Shown here: piece by piece, positions 2,417 to 12,452 of the stretch
How positions within the stretch are numbered: the stretch's first letter is position 1
Layout: every line of letters starts with the position of its first letter
Source of the DNA: a virus
DNA: 12,452 nucleotides
Strand: one strand, 5' to 3'
UHGV virus genome: UHGV-2080389
Translations under genes and position numbers: made by a program
The notes under the pieces: model-generated
The model's database searches: none
Seen by the model: only the letters and a program-made list of their open reading frames with translations
Told to the model about the DNA's origin: nothing

Positions 2417-2638
2417 TTAGTTACTATATACTGAGAAGGTTAATAGGTATCTATCAATGTCTTTACGTGACCAATAGTGTCGGTTTTTAATTTTCTTCGG
2501 TCGCGGTAAACCATTAGGCAGTTTGTCTTTGCAAAGCCAAGCTCGAATAGTTTGTACTTCATAGCCAATAATATTAGCTAACTCGCGGGTAGAAATTAGT
2601 TGTGACTGAGAGGGTTTTTGATGTTTGATATCGCTCAT
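2417..2638 (-). CDS. AlpA-family phage/island transcriptional regulator (excisionase-like HTH)
   Basis: 73-aa ORF with ATG at 2636-2638 and a GGGGTG RBS. The motif STRELANIIGYEVQTIRAWLCKDKLPNGLPRPKKIKNRHYWSRKDIDRYL matches the AlpA/Xis-like pattern (HTH followed by a basic wing and conserved W). Lies next to a P4-type integrase. Confidence 0.7.
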   Translation of the reverse strand: MSDIKHQKPSQSQLISTRELANIIGYEVQTIRAWLCKDKLPNGLPRPKKIKNRHYWSRKDIDRYLLTFSVYSN

Positions 2639-3138
2639 TTCATCACCCCAACATTTGATATGTGGGCAAATAAGACGATCATTGTTTTTAACAGAGATGA
2701 AAGAATGAAATGAAAAGGGGTGAATATGGGGTCTCTATCGGGATCGGGGTCGCTACTACTACCATCCGATGAAGATGATGATGAGTTTTTTGATGACGTT
2801 GTTGAACTTCGGCGTGAGCGGGAAGTATTCCCCTTTGGTGGAAAAAGGCATGTTATAGTATTGACTACATTCCTAATAGCAACTAAAAGTTTTGAAACAC
2901 GGTGCCAAAGAGGTAGTATTCGGTCAGTACTACTATTATTAAAACGCTGAATTGTTGTTTCCCAAAAATTAGAACTTTTGTTTTTAGTCGGATGTAAACC
3001 CCATCTCGCTCTGATTTCCGCACTTCGGTCTTCTCTTGATACAGTTATTGGGTTAGTCACTGTAGTTAATCTCCTGCTTAGTGAGTGAATGTAGTTAGCA
3101 GTAATAAAAGATAACTGAAAAAAAATTTCTGTCAACAC
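2635..3138 (-). CDS. Questionable ORF: Ser-rich, low-complexity product; starts with GTG in an AT-rich stretch
   Basis: Open frame whose TGA overlaps the AlpA-like ATG (ATGA). It contains no internal ATG until the last few codons and its product is low complexity (SSTTSSKNSSSSSSDGSSSDPDPD). It overlaps the plus-strand ORF 2726-2950; at most one of the two is real. Confidence 0.2.
   Translation of the reverse strand: MLTEIFFQLSFITANYIHSLSRRLTTVTNPITVSREDRSAEIRARWGLHPTKNKSSNFWETTIQRFNNSSTDRILPLWHRVSKLLVAIRNVVNTITCLFPPKGNTSRSRRSSTTSSKNSSSSSSDGSSSDPDPDRDPIFTPFHFILSSLLKTMIVLFAHISNVGVMK
2726..2950 (+). CDS. Questionable small ORF (74 aa) with an acidic stretch, divergent from the AlpA-like gene
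   Basis: ATG at 2726 preceded by AAGGGG at 2715-2720 (5-nt spacer). Product has GS-rich and acidic segments (SDEDDDEFFDDVVEL) and uses several codons rare in E. coli. The divergent arrangement mirrors yfjH/alpA in CP4-57, which is only weak support. Confidence 0.25.
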   Translation: MGSLSGSGSLLLPSDEDDDEFFDDVVELRREREVFPFGGKRHVIVLTTFLIATKSFETRCQRGSIRSVLLLLKR

Positions 3139-3174: not shown

Positions 3175-4494
3175 TCAACGCTTATCAACGTTGTTTTTTA
3201 TTTTTGCTTCTTCTAAGATCCATAATTCAACTTTTTCATGCCATTTTCTTAGCAAATCTAATGGACGGCGGCGATAGTGCTTTTCAGCAAGAGCGCTAGG
3301 CTTATGGCCCATAATCTGCGCAACAATACCTGTTGGTACTTCGACCCATTCAGCGAGGGTCCCAAAACTACGGCGCAATCCGTGCAAGCTGATATGTGGT
3401 AACTCCGCGCGAGTTAATGCTCTATTATGTGCTGAACGCGGTTCAATAATTTTGCCACTTTTGCTGTTACTTCTGAAAACCCAATTCTCCTCGTTTGTAC
3501 CACGATTGGGGATCTCCATCAGTGAGCGTAACAAGTCAGAAACATAGGGAGTGAGGGGGATAATTCGCTCGCCTTCGATCTTGTCTTTAATTCTCATGCT
3601 TGACCATTTGAAATCTATGTCAGACCAGCGAAGTGAGGAAATTTCTTCACGCCGTGCACCGGTGAGCAAAAGCACTTGGAGATAGGCTGATGCAATGGGA
3701 TTATTGAGGCTACGCACGGCACTGAACCAGCTTTTGAGCTGTTCTTTTTGTAAGCAATCTCCCGCTTTGCTCGCTGATATTGGAACCATTTTTCTCACGT
3801 TATGATCTTGTGCAAGATCGCCATCGATTATTCCCTGATATTTTTTCTGGTAATTAGCCCATTTGATGAATGCACGCAACAGACGGTAGGCATGAGCAGT
3901 GACGGTAGGCCGATTTTGTCTCTCTGTACTTAGCCATTCGGCAATGTTCTCTGGTGTTAGTTCTGATAATGGTCGGTCGAGCAGGCTAGCCAGTGGCCCA
4001 GGTGAGGTTGGGCCCCGGCCTCTTTTTTTACTTTCGCCTCCACGACTGGACAAGTTAACGTGATCGGCAATGTAGCGTGCAGAGTAGGGGCGTTTAGTTT
4101 TTGCGCTGATTCCGGTTCTCAATTCATCAAGATAATCTTCCCAAGCGCTTGAAAAGGTTGCCTTCGTTTTACGAGATTCAGCCTGCTGTGATTCCGCTTC
4201 AGCAATTTTTTCCGCCTTAGCTATACGCGGATCTATCCCAGTATCGATTAATGTTTGCAGTCGCCTGGCTTCGGCCCTCGCATCATCAATCCTCCAATCG
4301 TTAATGTTGCCAATGGTCATGCGAAGGGTTTTTCCCGCATACAGGCTTTGGAATACAAAGGCTTTTGCTCCACGAGTTGCTCGACATGCCAAGCTTGTTA
4401 CGTCCGTATCCCAAAGGAAAACTTGGTTTTTCCCTTCAGGTAAAGTAAATCTTCGAATTCGTTCGAAGGTTAGTTTTTGTCTTGAAAGCGCCAT
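3175..4494 (-). CDS. int: P4-family (CP4-type) tyrosine integrase
   Basis: 439-aa ORF with ATG at 4492-4494. N-terminal arm-binding-like region (GKTLRMTIGNINDWRIDDARAEARRLQTLIDTGIDP) and C-terminal catalytic signatures (HGLRRSFGT ... EKHYRR, with the Tyr nucleophile context). The start is adjacent to the tRNA-derived att core. Confidence 0.9.
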   Translation of the reverse strand: MALSRQKLTFERIRRFTLPEGKNQVFLWDTDVTSLACRATRGAKAFVFQSLYAGKTLRMTIGNINDWRIDDARAEARRLQTLIDTGIDPRIAKAEKIAEAESQQAESRKTKATFSSAWEDYLDELRTGISAKTKRPYSARYIADHVNLSSRGGESKKRGRGPTSPGPLASLLDRPLSELTPENIAEWLSTERQNRPTVTAHAYRLLRAFIKWANYQKKYQGIIDGDLAQDHNVRKMVPISASKAGDCLQKEQLKSWFSAVRSLNNPIASAYLQVLLLTGARREEISSLRWSDIDFKWSSMRIKDKIEGERIIPLTPYVSDLLRSLMEIPNRGTNEENWVFRSNSKSGKIIEPRSAHNRALTRAELPHISLHGLRRSFGTLAEWVEVPTGIVAQIMGHKPSALAEKHYRRRPLDLLRKWHEKVELWILEEAKIKNNVDKR

Positions 4495-4566
4495 TTTTAG
4501 GGTTCCTGTTGGGGATTACGGTTTACAGTAATGTAACGGCTGGTGTAAGTAAATTGAAAGGATAAA

Positions 4567-4592
4567 CATCAACACTCATCAATTTACATCAA
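4567..4592. repeat. Three CATCAA direct repeats at exact 10-bp spacing (4567, 4577, 4587), the outer two extended to ACATCAACA
   Basis: Read directly from the sequence, between the integrase start (4494) and the att core (4678), followed by an AT-rich tract. Confidence 0.5.
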
Positions 4593-4677
4593 CAGGTTTT
4601 TTGTTTTAATATTATGATTTAAAATGATAAATTTGTGATTTCTGATGGTTGTTCAAGCAGTTAAAATATAAAAACTT

Positions 4678-4726
4678 CGCATTCGTAATGCGAAGGTCGT
4701 AGGTTCGACTCCTATTATCGGCACCA
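4678..4726 (+). other. 3' segment of tRNA-Thr(CGU) (anticodon arm through CCA) without the 5' half: att core / displaced partial tRNA copy
   Basis: CGCATTCGTAATGCGAAGGTCGTAGGTTCGACTCCTATTATCGGCACCA contains an anticodon loop with CGT, a T-arm GGTTCGACTCC, an acceptor 3' strand TATCGGC and CCA. No matching 5' acceptor strand (GCCGATA) or D-arm lies upstream. It resembles the thrW 3' end, the attachment site used by P22-type integrases and by CP4-6 (recalled). Confidence 0.75.
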
Positions 4727-4740
4727 TTTAAATCAATAAG

Positions 4741-5064
4741 TTACCTAGCATTTAAGTAAACCACGTTCTCCTCTTGTGCCGTATTTGTGCCATTGCGACT
4801 TATAATCGCATCGATTTTGCTTGCGTGCTCGGTGAGATGCCCGGCTGAAAGGTGGGCGTATCTTTGAACCATTTCGAGAGTTTCCCATCCTCCCATCTCT
4901 TTAAGTGCAAGAAGAGAGACACCGGACTGAACCAGCCAGCTTGCCCAGGTATGCCTCAGATCATGGAAGCGGAAGTTGCTAATGCCTGCCCGCTTTAACG
5001 CTCCCTTCAGAAATCCATCCATCTCAATTAGTGACATTTGTTTCATTTCTTCCCACTCCGCCAC
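4741..5064 (-). pseudogene. int: C-terminal remnant of a P22-type tyrosine integrase
   Basis: Product [42 protein letters not shown] matches the conserved C-terminal catalytic region of P22-like Int. The tracked 'M' start is a GTG. The frame is closed by a stop roughly 16 codons upstream, and there is no room for the ~280 missing N-terminal codons before the next genes. Confidence 0.7.
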
Positions 5065-5225
5065 ATCGCATTCAGATATTTGTTTTGATTTACTGATGGA
5101 AAAGAATTTCTCTTAAGCAATTCCTCTCTCGATGGCATTGGCTTTACGCGTTGGCGAATAATCATTTCTGCCGGAAGAATGCCGGGATTGTATGCAAGTC
5201 CTCTCATGGTAAATTCCTCAGTCAT
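5043..5225 (-). CDS. Small hypothetical protein (about 60 aa), translationally coupled to the upstream gene
   Basis: ATG at 5223-5225 lies inside the upstream gene's last codons (AATGACTGA overlap). Product [42 protein letters not shown]... The tracked ORF 5043..5357 extends it with a less protein-like N-terminal stretch that is probably not translated. Confidence 0.35.
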
Positions 5226-5511
5226 TACTGATAGCGCCATAGCGTGAGCGGTAATTACGCAGGCGCGGGTCAATTTCAGGGAAGTGGGTATATGTGGCTT
5301 TGCGGAATGGTCGGATTGATGTCTGGTAAATTCGCTCGCGTTCTTCTTTCTCTGCAAGCCATATACAATGGCGAAATTCCTTTTCCTCTTTCGTTTCCTG
5401 CGGTAGAGACATTATTCGATCGTAGTTTTTTCTGAATTTATCCAGCACCTCCGATACGGAATTGCCGGAACAGCGGCGCGCGTCGTCCGCACCATACAGA
5501 GGCGCTGGCAT
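5218..5511 (-). CDS. Hypothetical early-operon protein (97 aa)
   Basis: ATG at 5509-5511 preceded by AAGGA (7-8 nt spacer), 23 nt downstream of the ssb-like stop. I recognise no family. Confidence 0.5.
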
Positions 5512-5534
5512 AATGGAATCCTTATGTTGCTACT

Positions 5535-5918
5535 TTAGAAGGGAATTGAATCGTCGTATTCAGGATGATTTTGATGATTGCTACTTTGCTGCTGTTGGCT
5601 GTTTCCTGAGGTTGCAAATCCAATCTTTGCATTCAGTAATTCAAGAGTGATTGATTGACCATTTTGCCCCTGATAAACATCAACCCTGATGTTTTCTCCG
5701 GTAATTTCTACAATGCCACCTTCAACAAGAACACTACGGTAGTAATCCGCTTGCGCTCCCGGCTTGGCAAATACAACGGCGCTGTAGTTTGTCCATTCTT
5801 TCTTTTTTGTCTGGCGATCGTAATACTGAACGCCAGCACGGATGTTGAATCCGATATTTTCCCCGGCCTGAAACTCTCTTGCGGGCTTGTTTAGTCTTAC
5901 AGTAATCGAATGTGCCAT
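5535..5918 (-). CDS. ssb: Phage single-stranded DNA-binding (SSB-like) protein
   Basis: 127 aa from the ATG at 5916-5918 (AAGGAG upstream). OB-fold-like core with a Gln/Ser-rich linker and an acidic tail ending DDSIPF, like the SSB C-terminal DDDIPF tip. The tracked 157-aa ORF over-extends the N-terminus into the erf 3' end. Confidence 0.75.
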   Translation of the reverse strand: MAHSITVRLNKPAREFQAGENIGFNIRAGVQYYDRQTKKKEWTNYSAVVFAKPGAQADYYRSVLVEGGIVEITGENIRVDVYQGQNGQSITLELLNAKIGFATSGNSQQQQSSNHQNHPEYDDSIPF

Positions 5919-6523
5919 TAAGCAGCCGCTCCTTCTAATTCGTCTCGTCTGATGTTGTAAACGTCCTGCGCTTTGTGCTGCTCCGGTGTGCCTTCGAGCA
6001 TCTTCCACGCTTTGGCGAACGCCTGTTTAAGCTCTTCTACGGTGTTTTTCTGCATTGCTGCGTCAGTGAATGCTTTTAGAACCTGTTCAGGTGTAGGTGA
6101 TGGTTTTGATTGCTTTGCTGCTGCGTTCTGCTGATGTTTATGCTCGTCGGTATCTGCATCTTTCGCATCATCAATGCCGAACAAACCATTGAGGCAATAC
6201 TTGCGTGCATAAGAGCTTGTAGCTCCCGTAACTTGTGCAGAATCCATTCCTTTCTTGCTTTCTTCCTCTCGTGCAAGAGCGGTTGCCGTATGACTGTTTT
6301 CGCCATCGGTAATAGTTGCCGTGGCTTTCACGTAATACCGATCACCAATCAACACAACTTCATCGCTGATTGATAAAAACAGGCCATTCAGTAACGGCTT
6401 AACGCCTTCAAGAATGTCTTCGCAGCTTCTGTATTTATATTTGCCGAATGAGTTGTACTGATTCTTTGGTGCGTTCAGATTCTCCTGAATAGCTGCCAGT
6501 CTTGCGTAAAATTCTTTGCTCAT
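5918..6523 (-). CDS. erf: Erf (essential recombination function) single-strand annealing protein, P22-type
   Basis: From MSKEFYARLAAIQENLNAPKNQYNSFGKYKYRSCEDILEGVKPLL..., closely matching my recollection of P22 Erf. ATG at 6521-6523. Its TAA overlaps the ssb ATG by one base (TAATG at 5916-5920). Confidence 0.9.
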   Translation of the reverse strand: MSKEFYARLAAIQENLNAPKNQYNSFGKYKYRSCEDILEGVKPLLNGLFLSISDEVVLIGDRYYVKATATITDGENSHTATALAREEESKKGMDSAQVTGATSSYARKYCLNGLFGIDDAKDADTDEHKHQQNAAAKQSKPSPTPEQVLKAFTDAAMQKNTVEELKQAFAKAWKMLEGTPEQHKAQDVYNIRRDELEGAAA

Positions 6524-6533
6524 ATGATTGTTC

Positions 6534-7022
6534 TCAGAATGGACACGGCCCAAGTAAATAACGCTGATTTAATACTTCAGTCTTTGCCGCATTTAAAAAT
6601 ACGCGAACACCTTCACGATCTCCCTTCTGGCGATACATTAACGCCTGCTGCGTGTACATGCGTCTCCGGTAGCCTGCCGCGTAAATGGCTACGTTTGGAA
6701 GACATACACCAGTTTCTGGTTGCTTATGTCCAAACTCATTCGCGTACACAATGGCCGCTCGCTCCAGATTGCGTCTGTATTCTTTCTGTTGCCAGATCAC
6801 GTCCTGTGCCATGAACTTAATTGGCTTAGCGTCTTCTATGCGCTCAGGCGTTTCGTGAGTACCTTTAGCCTGAATCTGCGCTCTGCTTAGAGTAGGGCGG
6901 TGTAATACTTCTGAACTTATTGCTTCTTCGCGGGCCAGCACGCCGTTAGCTAATGCCTTTGCCTTTAAACGCTCACGACGACGAGAACGTGAATTGCCTT
7001 TGAACTGAGTTCTGCGTGTCAT
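6534..7022 (-). CDS. N-like transcription antitermination protein with a P22-type arginine-rich motif
   Basis: ATG at 7020-7022 with AGGAGG 6 nt upstream. N-terminal GNSRSRRRERLKAKALA aligns with the P22 N arginine-rich motif (GNAKTRRHERRRKLAIER) and lambda N (QTRRRERRAEKQAQW). It is the first gene downstream of PL/nutL. At 162 aa it is longer than lambda N. Confidence 0.55.
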   Translation of the reverse strand: MTRRTQFKGNSRSRRRERLKAKALANGVLAREEAISSEVLHRPTLSRAQIQAKGTHETPERIEDAKPIKFMAQDVIWQQKEYRRNLERAAIVYANEFGHKQPETGVCLPNVAIYAAGYRRRMYTQQALMYRQKGDREGVRVFLNAAKTEVLNQRYLLGPCPF

Positions 7023-7187
7023 ATAGACCTCCTGATGAACTTTGGTGGTGTGGTAGGTGGGAGACCTATTTCGACCTGTTTCGGCCTACTTCAATTCGGC
7101 AATAGTCCCGCAGGCCTCGCCGCTTTACGTGCGACATATTCCCGTCCATGAACCCTTCACCACACCCCAAAGTTCACTTTGGTTATT

Positions 7188-7202
7188 GCGCTTTGTCAGC
7201 GC
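7188..7202 (-). promoter_or_regulatory. nutL boxB hairpin, P22 type (transcript reads GCGCUGACAAAGCGC: 5-bp stem, GACAA loop)
   Basis: Plus strand gcgctttgtcagcgc. Located in the PL leader between the PL start (about 7264) and the N-like start (7022). The 15-mer matches the P22 boxB-left RNA as I recall it. Confidence 0.55.
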
Positions 7203-7270
7203 CGTAGATTCATATTTGAATCGTTGTATATTCACCGCCCTGGTGAGTAGTGCGTCCTGCTGATGTGTTT

Positions 7271-7333
7271 AGTATCACCGCCAGTGGTATTTATGTCAAC
7301 ACCGCTAGAGATAATTTATCACCGCAGATGGTT
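7271..7333 (-). promoter_or_regulatory. Lambda-type OL1-OL2-OL3 operators with PL (-10 GATACT = plus 7271-7276; -35 TTGACA = plus 7294-7299; 17-bp spacer)
   Basis: OL1 at 7273-7289 (TATCACCGCCAGTGGTA), OL2 at 7297-7313 (one mismatch to lambda OL2), OL3 at 7317-7333 (TATCACCGCAGATGGTT). These are the lambda 17-mers from memory. Confidence 0.85.
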
Positions 7334-7418
7334 ATCTGTATGTTTTTTATATGAATTTATTTTTTGCAGGGGTGCATTGTTTGGTAGGTGAGAGATCTGA
7401 ACTGCTATGTTTAGTGAG

Positions 7419-7448
7419 TTGTATCTATTTATTTTCAAATAGATACAA
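7419..7448. repeat. Perfect 12-bp inverted repeat (TTGTATCTATTT-ATTTTC-AAATAGATACAA)
   Basis: Read directly from the sequence, between OL3 and the tIMM-like terminator. Confidence 0.5.
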
Positions 7449-7485
7449 TTGGTTATGTGTTCTTGGGTGAGGGGGATCGTGAGGC

Positions 7486-7511
7486 AAAGAAAACCCGGCT
7501 CTGTGGCCGGG
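7486..7511 (-). terminator. Intrinsic terminator ending the leftward cI/rex-slot transcript (tIMM-like)
   Basis: Minus strand reads CCCGGC-CACAGA-GCCGGG followed by UUUUCUUUG, immediately after the last rex-slot stop at 7520-7522. Confidence 0.6.
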
Positions 7512-7519
7512 AATAACAT

Positions 7520-7898
7520 TTAGGAATCAAGGTCAGGTAGCATGATTTTCTCAATCAACGTCAATGCCCTTTGGTCTCGTTCAGCAAAATATTTAGGAGC
7601 GTACTGAGGCAGCCACACTTCGTTGAAGTATTGTTTGAAATCTGCAATATTCGTTTGGGTATAGACGTACCGGGAATGTCCGGCCATCTGGGTACTCATG
7701 GTTATATGTTGGGAATGTCTTCGGCTCAACCCCCCGGTTGTCACGGAGCCATTGCGAGAAAACCCTACCCTCTGAAATATCAGGGACCATTTTTTCTGGC
7801 AGCGTATATCCGGCCTGTTCAAGTGGCGCAACCAAGTTAAACGTCAGTTCATTAAGCATAGAAAAGTGCGTATGAGGAACTCTGCCTCGGTTTGTCAT
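7520..7898 (-). pseudogene. Disrupted C-terminal portion of the KilA-N-domain gene (two ORF fragments in different frames)
   Basis: ORF 7593..7898 is in the same frame as the KilA-N ORF, separated from it by one TAA (7938-7940) with 13 sense codons between that TAA and the next ATG. ORF 7520..7831 is in the +1 frame. Protein-like sequence runs in the first frame up to about ...FPVRLYPNEY and continues in the second from about ...NIADFKQYFNEVWLPQYAPKYFAERDQ, so the switch is near 7640-7665. Confidence 0.4.
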
Positions 7899-7937
7899 AT
7901 ACCGCTTAAGGTGGATAGGGAGTTCGGCAGGCGCTCT

Positions 7938-8279
7938 TTAACCTGACATCCACTCACGCACCCATCTCGATACTTGCACTGCAAATTTTGGAGATAGCCA
8001 CTGAGCTAAATTAATTGCGATGTCTGGATGAACCCAAGTCCCTTGATTCTCTGCTCTTCCGCCTTTAAATGATTGAATTAACTCCGATATGGGAATCCCC
8101 ATATCGCGTGATAATTCATCAAAAAAATCTTGTGTTGTTTTTAGTCGTGTATAGTCAGCAAGTAGCTTCCCCGCAGACTTGCACATCGCGGTGGCATTGA
8201 TGTATCCGTCTTTGGTGCGAAGATGGATGACTTCTCCATCAACTTCTCTAGCGATTAATGCAAGTTGAAATTGTGTCAT
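7938..8279 (-). CDS. KilA-N (APSES-like) DNA-binding domain protein in the rexAB position
   Basis: 113-aa ORF with ATG at 8277-8279 and AGGA 7 nt upstream, 31 nt downstream of the cI stop. Signature GTWVHPDIAINLAQWLSPKFAVQVSRWV is typical of the KilA-N domain. Confidence 0.7.
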   Translation of the reverse strand: MTQFQLALIAREVDGEVIHLRTKDGYINATAMCKSAGKLLADYTRLKTTQDFFDELSRDMGIPISELIQSFKGGRAENQGTWVHPDIAINLAQWLSPKFAVQVSRWVREWMSG

Positions 8280-8310
8280 AAATCATCCTATTACGTGAAA
8301 AATAAAACAA

Positions 8311-9027
<717 letters not shown>

Positions 9028-9034
9028 TTAAATC

Positions 9035-9100
9035 TATCACCGCAAGGGATAAACTTCTAACACCGTGCGTGTTGACTATTTTACCTCTAGCGGTGATAAT
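9035..9100. promoter_or_regulatory. Lambda OR3-OR2-OR1 with divergent PRM/PR (PR -35 TTGACT 9072-9077, -10 GATAAT 9095-9100)
   Basis: OR3 at 9035-9051 (TATCACCGCAAGGGATA), OR2 at 9058-9074 (TAACACCGTGCGTGTTG), OR1 at 9082-9098 (one mismatch to lambda OR1). The PR spacer is 17 bp. Confidence 0.9.
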
Positions 9101-9124
9101 GGTTGCCTGTACTAAGGAGGTTGT

Positions 9125-9325
9125 ATGGAACAACGCATAACCCTGAAAGATTATGCAATACGCTTTGGGCAAACCAAGACGGCTAAAGATCTCGGCGTAT
9201 ATCAAAGCGCGATTAACAAGGCCATTCATGCAGGCCGAAAGATTTTTTTAACTATAAACGCTGATGGAAGCGTTTATGCGGAAGAAATAAAGCCCTTCCC
9301 AAGTAACAAAAAAACAACTGCATAA
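9125..9325 (+). CDS. cro: Cro repressor (lambda type, 66 aa)
   Basis: [66 protein letters not shown] differs from lambda Cro at two positions from memory. AGGAGG RBS upstream. Confidence 0.95.
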
Positions 9326-9333
9326 GTAACACC

Positions 9334-9378
9334 GCTCTTTTCACAATGGACATTCGTCCTACGTCGCTGACAAAGCGA
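9334..9378 (+). promoter_or_regulatory. nutR: boxA-like CGCTCTTTT (9334-9342) and P22-type boxB hairpin UCGCUGACAAAGCGA (9364-9378)
   Basis: Located between the cro stop and cII. The boxB has the same GACAA loop and 5-bp stem architecture as nutL. A small hairpin (ATGCGT-TTCC-ACGCAT, 9409-9424) follows and may be part of a tR1-like region. Confidence 0.55.
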
Positions 9379-9462
9379 GCCCCAAGATATCTGACCAACT
9401 AAGGCCATATGCGTTTCCACGCATACCTTTCAACTAACTATTCACTATTGGAAAATTAACAA

Positions 9463-9759
9463 ATGACACAAGCAAGTTATAGCAAACCAACACAGCGAGA
9501 AATTGATCGCGCTGAAACTGATTTACTCATCAACCTGTCAACGCTTACCCAGCGCGGTCTGGCAAAGATGATTGGCTGTCATGAATCGAAGATAAGCAGA
9601 ACGGACTGGAGGTTTATTGCTTCGGTCTTGTGTGCTTTCGGAATGGCATCAGACATCAGTCCGATTAGCAGGGCTTTTAAGTATGCATTGGATGGAATCA
9701 CAAAGAAAAAATCCCCGGCCGCCACCGAGGATTTTAAGCAAATTGATATGCAATTCTGA
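9463..9759 (+). CDS. cII: CII-like transcriptional activator
   Basis: 98 aa. The central ...SKISR...W... segment and the C-terminus KKKSPAATEDFKQIDMQF resemble lambda CII (...KKRPAATERSEQIQMEF), but the protein overall is a different allele. Confidence 0.7.
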   Translation: MTQASYSKPTQREIDRAETDLLINLSTLTQRGLAKMIGCHESKISRTDWRFIASVLCAFGMASDISPISRAFKYALDGITKKKSPAATEDFKQIDMQF

Positions 9760-9791
9760 GGTCATTACTGGATCAATCTACAGGAGTAATT

Positions 9792-9953
9792 ATGACAAAA
9801 CGTCGTAAGAAATACCAGGAAAAAGAAGAGATTCGACACCCTGATTCACCTGAGGGATTAGTGGTAGCCGCAGCAAATAACAGGGCGTTCGCAGAGCGCC
9901 TTGTTGGTGTTTACAGACTAGCCAAAGCAGGAGTGAAACATGGGCGTCGTTAA
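9792..9953 (+). CDS. Small hypothetical ORF (53 aa); below the ORF-track cut-off
   Basis: ATG at 9792 with AGGAG 5 nt upstream. Product MTKRRKKYQEKEEIRHPDSPEGLVVAAANNRAFAERLVGVYRLAKAGVKHGRR, stop at 9951-9953. It overlaps the next ORF by 14 nt. Confidence 0.4.
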   Translation: MTKRRKKYQEKEEIRHPDSPEGLVVAAANNRAFAERLVGVYRLAKAGVKHGRR

Positions 9954-10110
9954 GTTAGCTGATTACAGGCCTCAACTGGAGGTCGTGGAGCATCGCGTGG
10001 CAGAACTCGAAGATGGCTACACTCGGACTGCAAACACACTGTTAGAAGCCGCCATGCTTTACCGAATACTGAAGAATTACGCCAAAACCCTGACAGGAGC
10101 AGGAGTATGA
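9940..10110 (+). pseudogene. O-like replication initiator: N-terminal stub only (56 codons)
   Basis: ATG at 9940 with AGGAG upstream. The segment VAELEDGYTRTANTLLEA aligns with the lambda O N-terminus (VADLDDGYARLSNMLLEA, recalled). The frame then ends after about 20 more codons, with no room for the remaining ~250 codons of O or for P. Confidence 0.45.
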
Positions 10111-10195
10111 AGTCAGAGATAACAATCAACTAATACTGTTTTGTTGATTTTTGCTTGTGATTGGCGTTCTGGTCTGATTTTTGTGGAGTAAGTTG

Positions 10196-10581
10196 ATGCG
10201 TGATATTCAGATGGTTCTTGAGCGTTGGGGAGCGTGGGCGGCTAATAATCATGAANNNNNNNNNNNNNNNNNNNNATTGCCGCCGGTTTTAAGGGATTAA
10301 TTCCTTCAAAAGTAAAATCTCGCCCGCAATGTTGTGACGATGACGCGATGATCATTTGCGGGTGCATGGCCCGTCTGAAAAAGAACAACAGCGATTTGCA
10401 CGATTTATTAGTAGATTATTATGTAGTCGGTATGACATTCATGTCACTGGCAGGTAAGCATTGCTGCTCTGATGGTTATATCGGGAAAAGGTTACAGAAG
10501 GCTGAGGGCATAATTGAAGGGATGTTAATGGCATTAGATATCCGGTTAGAGATGGATATCGTTGTTAATAACTCTAATTAA
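10196..10581 (+). CDS. Q: Q-family late antiterminator (phage 82 / QuuD type), interrupted by a 20-N gap
   Basis: ATG at 10196 (GGAG 7 nt upstream) gives [20 protein letters not shown] up to the N-run. After the N-run the frame of ORF 10348..10581 reads [36 protein letters not shown]...VVNNSN. Both halves match my recollection of Q82/QuuD. Confidence 0.75.
10256..10275. other. Run of 20 N: assembly or scaffold gap, not biological sequence
   Basis: Literal n characters. Flanking Q codons are out of frame by one across the run, so its length is a placeholder. Confidence 0.95.
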
Positions 10582-10594
10582 TATGCCAATTGTT

Positions 10595-10633
10595 TACTAA
10601 AAATTATTAAAAATGGGGCGTTGAGACGCCCCC
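10595..10633 (-). terminator. Intrinsic terminator for minus-strand transcription downstream of the porin gene
   Basis: Minus strand reads GGGGCG-UCUCAA-CGCCCC followed by AUUUUUAAUAAUUUUUAG. Confidence 0.5.
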
Positions 10634-10720
10634 AAAAATAAAGGGTAATATATAACAGAAGGTTTATATAGTTAGAAGCAAGGTTGTGCTTCTAAAGGAA
10701 GTGGCTTGAGGGAGCCACTT

Positions 10721-10760
10721 ATATGTTGGGGAGGCAACGCCTCCCGCAACATATCTTTTT
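10721..10760 (+). terminator. Strong plus-strand intrinsic terminator downstream of Q (tR'-like)
   Basis: ATATGTTG-GGGAGGC-AAC-GCCTCCC-G-CAACATAT (about 15-bp stem with one bulge) followed by CTTTTTC. A second hairpin (AAGTGGCT/AGCCACTT) lies at 10699-10720. Confidence 0.6.
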
Positions 10761-10770
10761 CGTAATCAGA

Positions 10771-11868
10771 TTAGAACTGGTAAACCAGACCTACAGCAAC
10801 GATGTCATCAGTGCTTACACCGAGTGCTTTAGTGAAGTCATTTTTGTCAAGCAGGTTGATTTTGTAATCAACGAAAGTAGACATATTTTTGTTGAAGTAA
10901 TAGGTTGCACCTACATCAACATATTTGACTAAGTCCTGATCGCCCCATACTCCAAGATCTTTACCTTTAGATTGCAGGTAAGCAACGGACGGACGCAGAC
11001 CGAAATCGAACTGATATTGTGCAACAGCTTCGAAGTTTTGGGCTTTATTAGCAACGAAGTGATCAGCAAATACAGTCATATTCTGGGTTTCAGAATAGGT
11101 AGTGGCCAGGTAAATGTTGTTAGCGTCATATTTCAGACCTGCGGCCCAAACTTCTGCATTTTTACCGGAAGCAAATACTTCAGGAAGAACTTTCCCTGCA
11201 TTAACTTGAGTGTCGGTACGATCAGATTTCGCATAAGTTGCACCGATACCGAATCCTTCGTATTCATAGGTAGCAGAGAAACCGAAGCCATCACCGTTAC
11301 CTTCAGTGTAGTTATCGAAATCGCTACGATCGTTTTTGCCTTGGTACTGAGCAGCAAAGTTCAGACCATCAACCAGACCAAAGAAGTCGTTGTTACGATA
11401 GGTTGCAACACCAGTGGTGCGACCAGTCATGAACACATCTGTTTGGGTCCAGGTATCGCCACCGAATTCTGGCAGAACGTCAGTCCACGCACCGATGTCG
11501 TATGCTACACCGTAGTTACGGCCGTAATCGATTGAGCCGTAGTCACCGAATTTCAGGCCTGCAAATGCAAGACGGGTTTTGTCTTTGGAGGAACCTTGAG
11601 ATTCAGCGCGGTTGCCTTTGAATTCATATTCCCACTGACCGAAACCAGTCAGTTGATCGTTGATTTGGGTTTCACCTTTGAAGCCAAGACGGGCATAAGT
11701 AGTATCACCATCATCTGCATCATTAGAGGAGAAGTAGTGCTTGGCATTAACTTTCCCGTACAGATCCAGCTTGTTACTGTCTTTATTATAAATTTCAGCT
11801 GCCTGAGCAGACATCGCCATCAGTACTGATGCAGCTACAGCAGAAATTGCCACTGTTAATTTTTTCAT
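10771..11868 (-). CDS. nmpC: Prophage-borne outer-membrane porin (NmpC/Lc family, OmpC-like), with signal peptide
   Basis: 365-aa ORF. N-terminal signal [23 protein letters not shown] followed by AEIYNK, and the classic porin C-terminus ...VGLVYQF. Its position between Q and the lysis genes, on the opposite strand, is that of nmpC in DLP12 and lc in phage PA-2. Confidence 0.9.
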
Positions 11869-12296
11869 CGTGAGCCCTTTTTTTTGAACTATTATTAAAA
11901 AATGATGTCACTGCGCGATAAATATTCATCTAATCAATGTGATTATTTCAAGATGTAAGTTTTGGTTTCTCGTTTGATTTGTGAAGTAGATCTCTATTTT
12001 TATCTGAACTTTTTTCTATCGAATCCTATTCATAGCTCTTGGCTGAATAAAAATAAATCTATTAGTCAATTTATATTAACGGCTGTTATTTATAAGTGCT
12101 CTATAATTTGAAGGTTCAATTTAAATCGGCTAAAAATAACACTGGAAATTATTTGTTGGTTATTTGTTGAGGTTTTCTTATGTATTTGTGGTGGTGTTTT
12201 GAACACTCGGTAGCATTCTCATAAATATCATTCAGTGGTTTACGTACGTAAAAAATTGGTTATGCTGTTAAGAGTGGTTACTTCGTCACACAGCTT

Positions 12297-12329
12297 AAAC
12301 CCGCCGTCGAGCGGGTTTTTCCATTTTTT
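12297..12329 (+). terminator. Plus-strand intrinsic terminator just upstream of the holin-like start
   Basis: AAACCCGC-CGTCGA-GCGGGTTT followed by TTCCATTTTTT. Confidence 0.45.
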
Positions 12330-12441
12330 GAGTCTCGATATTAGCTGATAACCCAATACCTGAGTTATTCACTGACTCCGAGTCTGTTACGTTTCGTAGT
12401 ATTCCCTCAATTTACACCCGCTTTGTCTGCGAGGTGGGGTT

Positions 12442-12452
12442 ATGAAATCCAT
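12442..12452 (+). CDS. First codons of a lysis gene, probably a class II (S21-type) holin; continues beyond the window
   Basis: GAGGTGG RBS at 12431-12437 then ATGAAATCCAT (M K S ...). S21-type holins begin MKSMDK and follow the porin in DLP12-like prophages. Only 11 nt are visible. Confidence 0.35.

Follow-up and report, generated by a model that had tools for sequence, protein, structure and literature searches.

A hybrid attachment junction between a CP4-6-family island and a decayed lambdoid prophage at the tRNA-Thr gene thrW

The interval at positions 4495-4740 of the viral DNA analyzed here (UHGV-2080389, 12,452 nucleotides, hereafter the window) is the spacer separating two minus-strand integrase reading frames, and it is very probably the att junction internal to an array of integrative elements arranged in tandem at thrW, the gene for tRNA-Thr(CGU). 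The element on the left can be recognized, from its gene content and order, as the int-proximal end of a CP4-6-family genomic island, and the one on the right, from its homology, as the remnant of an HK542/HK97-like lambdoid prophage. The original prediction had proposed that two unrelated elements lie in tandem at one tRNA-Thr site, and this proposal is upheld by the hybrid structure of the junction, by alleles that carry only one of the elements, by the complete array of E. coli ECONIH4, and by four metagenome contigs that span the junction. Since the intact thrW gene and any further copy of the core lie outside the window, which holds a single core copy, we infer the array of this lineage from near-identical islands and prophages found elsewhere.

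At the center of the junction, 49 nt (4678-4726, plus strand) reproduce the 3' end of thrW exactly. This core extends from the anticodon stem to the CCA (CGCATTCGTAATGCGAAGGTCGTAGGTTCGACTCCTATTATCGGCACCA) and matches, base for base, the 3' portion of tRNA-Thr as annotated in E. coli PD7 and of K-12 thrW. A 25-nt sub-pattern of this core occurs once in the window and found no match in 200 shuffles; given the 49-nt identity and this shuffling result, the match to thrW is not attributable to chance. The core starts at 4678, at a distance of 184 from the start of the left integrase ORF (4494), and ends at 4726, at a distance of 15 from the stop codon of the right integrase remnant (4741, minus strand); the tRNA segment and the 184-bp and 15-bp spacings on which the original prediction was built proved exact to the base. 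ARAGORN called no tRNA in the window, and the Rfam tRNA model matched positions 4651-4723 with 36.3 bits. This match is explained by the 27 nt upstream of the core (4651-4677, plus strand), which form the degenerate 5' half of a tRNA; the whole of 4651-4723 is a pseudo-tRNA comparable to K-12 ptwF.

The core is bordered by DNA of the island on one side and of the phage on the other. On its left, the island-side att arm (4495-4677, plus strand), which includes the degenerate tRNA half, is ptwF-type island sequence with 84% identity to the K-12 intF-ptwF spacer, and neither the phage's own left arm nor the 5' half of thrW. On its right, the attP right-arm spacer that runs from the core to the int stop codon (4727-4740, plus strand) matches the attP/int region of HK542 and the attL flank of PD7, and leads as an HK542/SfX-type right arm into the 3' end of int, not into the chromosomal flank seen when the island is alone. 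The extent of identity with thrW is also specific to each element: the island has 49 nt in common with it (CGCATTCG…CCA), whereas the phage attP has only the last 46 nt (4681-4726, ATTCG…CCA), the phage identity beginning 3 nt later; at the far end of such a prophage, the HK542-type left arm would meet the core as …GGTGCTACAG followed by ATTCG…. The junction is a hybrid att site made of an island arm, the core, and a phage arm, in which the single core copy is at once the attR of the island and the attL of the prophage. Such a hybrid is the expected outcome of two elements successively using one tRNA 3' end, with strand exchange presumably located in the anticodon stem-loop.

Within the island arm, between the start of the island integrase and the core, two exact direct copies of ACATCAACA (4566-4574 and 4586-4594) follow each other with a spacing of 20 nt. 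Their K-12 counterparts are CATCAAC and AATCAAC, and these repeats are candidate arm-type binding sites for an IntF-type integrase. As a separate observation, in some genomes in which the same island abuts chromosomal genes, as in loci L007 and L015 (about 9769-9817), the attR core has a 1-nt deletion (TATCGCACCA vs. TATCGGCACCA); a degenerate attR of this kind might impair excision.

The genes of the left element, all on the minus strand, follow the order yagK-yagL'-yagM-ykgV-yagN-intF, which is that of K-12. They encode a protein of the YagK/YfjJ family (inovirus Gp2-like; 448-1068; Pfam YagK_YfjJ_C, E = 5e-52; 56% identity to K-12 YagK), the C-terminal remnant of a YagL-like resolvase (1271-1447; 58% identity to YagL residues 183-232), a YagM-like protein (1530-2294; 32% identity to YagM over 249 aa, E = 1e-42), a small YkgV/AlpA-like HTH protein (2417-2638; 66% identity to K-12 YkgV), a YagN-like protein (2635-3138; 31% identity to YagN), and a P4-family tyrosine integrase of 439 aa, orthologous to IntF (3175-4494; Pfam Arm-DNA-bind_3, PF13356, and Phage_integrase, PF00589). 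The YkgV-like protein, on which Pfam HTH_17 gives a weak match in related loci, is a candidate excision (directionality) factor of the island. The integrase is 89% identical to K-12 IntF over 441 aa, aligned from IntF residue 26, and the DNA from int through the pseudo-tRNA is 82-84% identical to the K-12 intF-ptwF region. The similarity to K-12 intF/ptwF that had been noticed in the sequence is thus one of true homology, as attested by the identity of the integrases and by the collinearity of the module.

Indeed, the right end of K-12 CP4-6 has the same thrW site, the same int-proximal gene order, and the same layout at its border, in which int reads away from a pseudo-tRNA carrying the identical 49-nt thrW segment. 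The two islands differ in their accessory proteins, which are only 31-66% identical (all five module homologues being collinear and that of yagL reduced to a remnant), and in their cargo: near-identical copies of the window's island carry a sucrose (scr) operon, a type I restriction-modification system, or other genes. They differ also in what follows the pseudo-tRNA, which in K-12 is only a 69-nt phage-int fossil and then yagP, and in the window several kilobases of prophage.

The island integrase is read as probably intact, because its ORF is complete from an ATG at 4494 with an AGGA 9-12 nt upstream, because neither its arm-binding nor its catalytic domain is truncated (its sequence has the R, HxxR, and Y motifs), and because the exact 439-aa protein occurs in 2,870 blocks of the public collection; it is presumably active. 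In every E. coli record that we examined, RefSeq/PGAP nevertheless labels it as a pseudogene with an "internal stop." We set this label aside as a start-site artefact: the stop in question sits in a 25-codon upstream extension (window model 3175-4569, minus strand) taken over from the 466-aa K-12 annotation, which begins 25 codons upstream of the conserved ATG. It may be the start of K-12 IntF that is mis-annotated.

On the other side of the core, the phage integrase is reduced to its last 88 codons and the stop codon (4741-5008, minus strand), with only the HxxR and Tyr motifs kept. The encompassing ORF (4741-5064) covers only the last third of the catalytic domain (positions 103-170 of the 172 of the Pfam Phage_integrase profile), and its residues 20-107 (88 aa) are 100% identical to the Int C-terminus of Shigella phage SfX and of phage ECP1, as opposed to 63% identical to P22 Int. 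The remnant had initially been called P22-type; it does belong to the same thrW-targeting group as P22, but these identities led us to replace the label with SfX/HK542-type. At the DNA level, positions 4681-5008 are 98.5% identical to HK542, from its annotated attP into the 3' end of int. The annotation of this attP reads "similar to thrW tRNA gene and ptwF tRNA gene"; it immediately follows the int stop codon, and the 15 nt from the stop codon to the CCA end are found in both. The HK542 int reads into attP, and the remnant has the same orientation. As expected from the original prediction, each of the two integrases is therefore oriented as in its reference element, that is, away from the pseudo-tRNA for K-12 intF and into attP for HK542 int.

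The truncation of int results from a deletion whose junction carries a 6-nt microhomology, CCCTTC (5003-5008). In blastn alignments, positions 4681-5008 correspond to HK542 1454-1781 and positions 5003-6666 to HK542 3469-5135, so that about 1.69 kb is lost relative to HK542 (1.73 kb relative to the PD7 prophage), including the N-terminus of int (298 of 386 codons, or 77%), xis, and one or two early genes. Beyond this point extends a lambdoid early and immunity region (5009-9970), delineated by Pfam matches and by gene calls in a nearly identical contig (L027), with DUF2737 (C-terminal part of the ORF; 5043-5357), abc2 (5218-5511), erf (5918-6553), N (6534-7022), KilA-N (7938-8279), cI (8311-9024), cro (9125-9325), and cII (9463-9759). 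The region is 96-98% identical to HK542, HK97, and the PD7 prophage, which bears out the suggestion that a lambdoid prophage had been added to the locus, here in the state of a decayed remnant. The fused DUF2737 ORF (104 aa) returned no record on look-up; ORFs of 56 aa and 101 aa gave matches instead.

A second deletion (9970-10059) has removed O, P, and the nin region. It is spanned by a 56-aa fusion ORF (9940-10110); the alignment leaps there from 14553 to 18640 of locus D5, and the same junction is found in contigs L027-L030. Neither deletion junction occurs in any of 5,426 complete E. coli genomes, and both are found in several gut metagenome contigs. The prophage of the window is thus missing a complete int, xis, and the replication genes O and P. 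Given that the N-terminus of int and xis are deleted, it would be unable to excise itself, and it can be regarded as a dead, locked-in remnant of its family. With HK542/SfX it has in common the attP right arm and int 3' end, a 46-nt core identical to thrW, and an HK97/HK542-like early region; unlike them, it has neither the N-terminal 77% of int nor xis, O, P, and the nin genes, and the left flank of its core is island DNA.

Farther downstream, a run of 20 Ns (10256-10275) interrupts the Q gene (quuD-like antiterminator); it looks like a scaffold gap or a masked stretch, and takes the place of 18 nt that, in the related contig L029, code for DVTWSS. The ends of contigs L027 and L028 fall at window positions 10248 and 10255. 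Owing to this run, positions 10276-12452 are tied to the remainder of the window through scaffolding. Between Q and the holin lies a gene for an nmpC/lc-type porin of 365 aa (10771-11868, minus strand), at the location usual in DLP12-like lambdoid prophages; the exact protein occurs in 17,985 blocks of the collection.

Genomes with other occupancies of thrW, one of the tDNA hotspots used most often in E. coli (PMC7545054), allow the two elements to be separated. An empty site is found in CUVET25-1155 (proA-thrW-yagP-paoD). The island alone is found in MSB1_9D, where the island and the core are directly followed by yagP-paoD. The phage type alone is found in PD7, where 14 nt separate proB-proA-thrW from an intact int, which xis and a related lambdoid prophage follow; the far end of this prophage has the 46-nt core preceded by the HK542 left arm. 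PD7 also carries, after this thrW prophage, the remnant of a WYL/DUF932 island. The very prophage of the window is found without the island in a metagenome contig (L027/L033, ERZ27231935), in which frsA-crl-phoE-proB-proA and an intact thrW precede the same decayed prophage with both of its deletions. This contig shows one mismatch in 5,571 nt against window positions 4678-10248, the match starting exactly at the first base of the core; the samples with the remnant alone are ERZ27231935 and SRR27029635. The comparison with strains that lack one element, by which it had been hoped to reconstruct the order of integration, is therefore available for both elements, but the order itself is unreadable from the junction.

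Complete arrays are also found. In ECONIH4 (NZ_CP026399.1, about 2.085-2.180 Mb), three elements lie in tandem at thrW with three copies of the core, in the order proA, intact thrW, a 44-kb island, core, a phage with an intact int, core, and a CP4-6-like element that shares an identical left end with K-12 CP4-6. The end of the 44-kb island is 99.9% identical to the island of the window; the intact thrW and the third core that had been anticipated, absent from the window, are thus present in this genome beside nearly the same island end. This 44-kb island carries a sucrose operon, remnants of conjugation genes, and many IS elements, and the phage next to it is an e14-like prophage with Mu-like tail genes. 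More broadly, a phage integrase of 386-387 aa lies just past the core in 5 of the 10 distinct contexts listed for the exact 439-aa Int.

As for the seam between the island and the truncated phage int, it is carried by four independent ENA metagenome contigs from different samples (e.g., ERZ28595824, ERZ27272333, ERZ917698, and ERZ19634310), at 99.6-100% identity, each of which spans the island int, the core, the int remnant, and the deletion junction. The exact combination of island and remnant was found in none of the 5,426 complete E. coli genomes, none of which matches more than 39% of the window at a single locus, and an exact scan for a 102-nt seam pattern returned no copy in GTDB representative genomes or JGI metagenomes. 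We also tried short seam-spanning queries as a count of tandem junctions in complete genomes and discarded them as uninformative: coverage of the seam cannot separate tandem from single occupancy, because the flanks of native thrW and of K-12 ptwF resemble the phage arm. In the empty site of CUVET25-1155 and in the K-12 ptwF flank (L031 4050-4118; L006 37256-37323), about 69 nt immediately preceding yagP correspond to window positions 4727-4795; they are homologous to the SfX/HK542 attP right arm and, with a frameshift of 1 nt, to the last 18 or so codons of int. What borders thrW on the native chromosome thus appears to be the fossil of an earlier thrW phage, and the K-12 ptwF locus is itself the scar of the same island-plus-phage layout.

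This fossil raises the possibility that no second element is involved, and that the right side of the junction is only the short relic of an integrase found after thrW throughout E. coli, since unoccupied thrW and K-12 ptwF display the same phage-arm homology and last int codons. The reading is refuted by the extent of the homology, which passes 4795, runs through 267 nt of int, and continues for about 5 kb over abc2-erf-N-cI-cro-cII at 96-98% identity, and by the island-only allele of MSB1_9D, which departs from the window at 4795 into yagP-paoD. One may also wonder whether an assembler joined the attR of an island to the thrW-prophage junction of another strain across the 49-67 nt repeat: the run of Ns indicates that the assembly behind the window was scaffolded or masked, the window's combination of elements is absent from all complete genomes searched, and a metagenome contains an allele in which the same prophage lacks the island. 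Such a chimera is very unlikely in view of the four contigs that span the seam in different samples, three of which bear names that refer to assembly k-mers of 119 or 127, a length exceeding that of the repeat; closed genomes moreover display this architecture with other phages.

On the preferred reading of two elements in tandem, the junction could be formed as follows. The P4-family integrase of the island would recombine a 49-nt stretch of its attP with the identical 3' end of thrW, leaving beside int, as attR, a displaced tRNA 3' segment equivalent to K-12 ptwF. The phage integrase, of the SfX/P22 group, would use the last 46 nt of the same segment, its int reading into attP. Both elements would thereby duplicate the same tRNA 3' end, so that one core would become common to both. 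In the order that we favor, the phage would first have inserted at thrW and decayed there, losing 77% of int together with xis to a microhomology-mediated deletion of about 1.7 kb and O, P, and nin to a second one; the island would then have entered the regenerated intact thrW at the phage attL and pushed the prophage remnant downstream.

The junction has the same sequence whichever element came first, and it is the alleles that inform the order. Because the island-free contig has the same decayed prophage, the island was gained or lost after the phage integrase had died, and since the island was thus inserted or excised after the loss of the phage int, the phage was not the last to move. Between gain and loss, a late integration of the island into intact thrW at the phage attL seems to us the likelier event. 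It is favored by the near identity of the island beside differing neighbors, whereas the prophage is old enough to have undergone two deletions, by the most distal position, in ECONIH4, of the element that most resembles K-12 CP4-6, which fits with newcomers entering at the intact tRNA, and by the experimental entry of a newcomer into the attL of SfX (PMC3306764). Conversely, the island could have come first, the phage then inserting into the pseudo-tRNA at the island's attR, which would serve as a secondary attB, and decaying there, before a precise IntF-mediated excision yielded the island-free allele. The 46-nt phage core indeed lies wholly inside the 49-nt segment of the pseudo-tRNA, a second element may enter either restored core (PMC7192596), and excision would be plausible for an island that keeps an apparently intact Int and a YkgV/AlpA-like protein. 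This reverse order nonetheless appears rather unlikely in light of the 99.9%-identical island copies beside quite different neighbors, which suggest a recent spread, of the distal position of the CP4-6-like element in ECONIH4, and of the experimental precedent, which concerns attL (PMC3306764).

In this regard, a close parallel to the late entry of the island is provided by Shigella flexneri, in which phage SfI was shown experimentally to integrate into the attL of a resident SfX prophage at thrW, and in which tandem SfI-SfX lysogens were built in the laboratory (PMC3306764). There too, two elements occupy one tRNA-Thr site with a hybrid att copy between them, and the newcomer enters the attL of a resident SfX-type prophage. 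The pair in the window differs in that its partners are a dead prophage and an island whose integrase belongs to the P4 family, and in that it is known from sequence, whereas SfI and SfX are two live phages with related integrases. More generally, tandem arrays that arise when a second element enters either restored core are a general property of integrative elements (PMC7192596).

It had further been suggested that such a site could allow cross-mobilization, for which there is a precedent in streptococcal phage-ICE tandems (PMC13651849). Nothing that we found supports this suggestion here. For the two elements to move as a composite island, the IntF-type Int and its YkgV/AlpA-like partner would have to bring about recombination between the intact thrW and the core copy on the far side of the dead prophage, which we hold to be improbable because the phage integrase is dead and because the distal att would carry phage arms rather than island arms. 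Were it true, the prophage remnant, with its nmpC-type porin, anti-RecBCD, and recombination genes, would be newly accreted cargo of the island, and the array would be an enterobacterial counterpart of the Streptococcus tandems (PMC13651849).

Overall, the tandem arrangement at thrW is real but ordinary, being common and already known in kind in E. coli; both elements belong to known families, and their combination is present in several public assemblies. As a matter of fact, thrW ranks as a textbook hotspot of integration, accretion in tandem at tRNA genes has been well documented, and no new mechanism is revealed here. The main use of the analysis lies in annotation, for which it provides exact borders for the two elements and explains the presence of a "tRNA fragment" between two integrase genes. 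Beyond this, the pair of alleles in which the same dead prophage is found with and without the island offers a clean natural example of an island that moved after its neighbor had lost its integrase.
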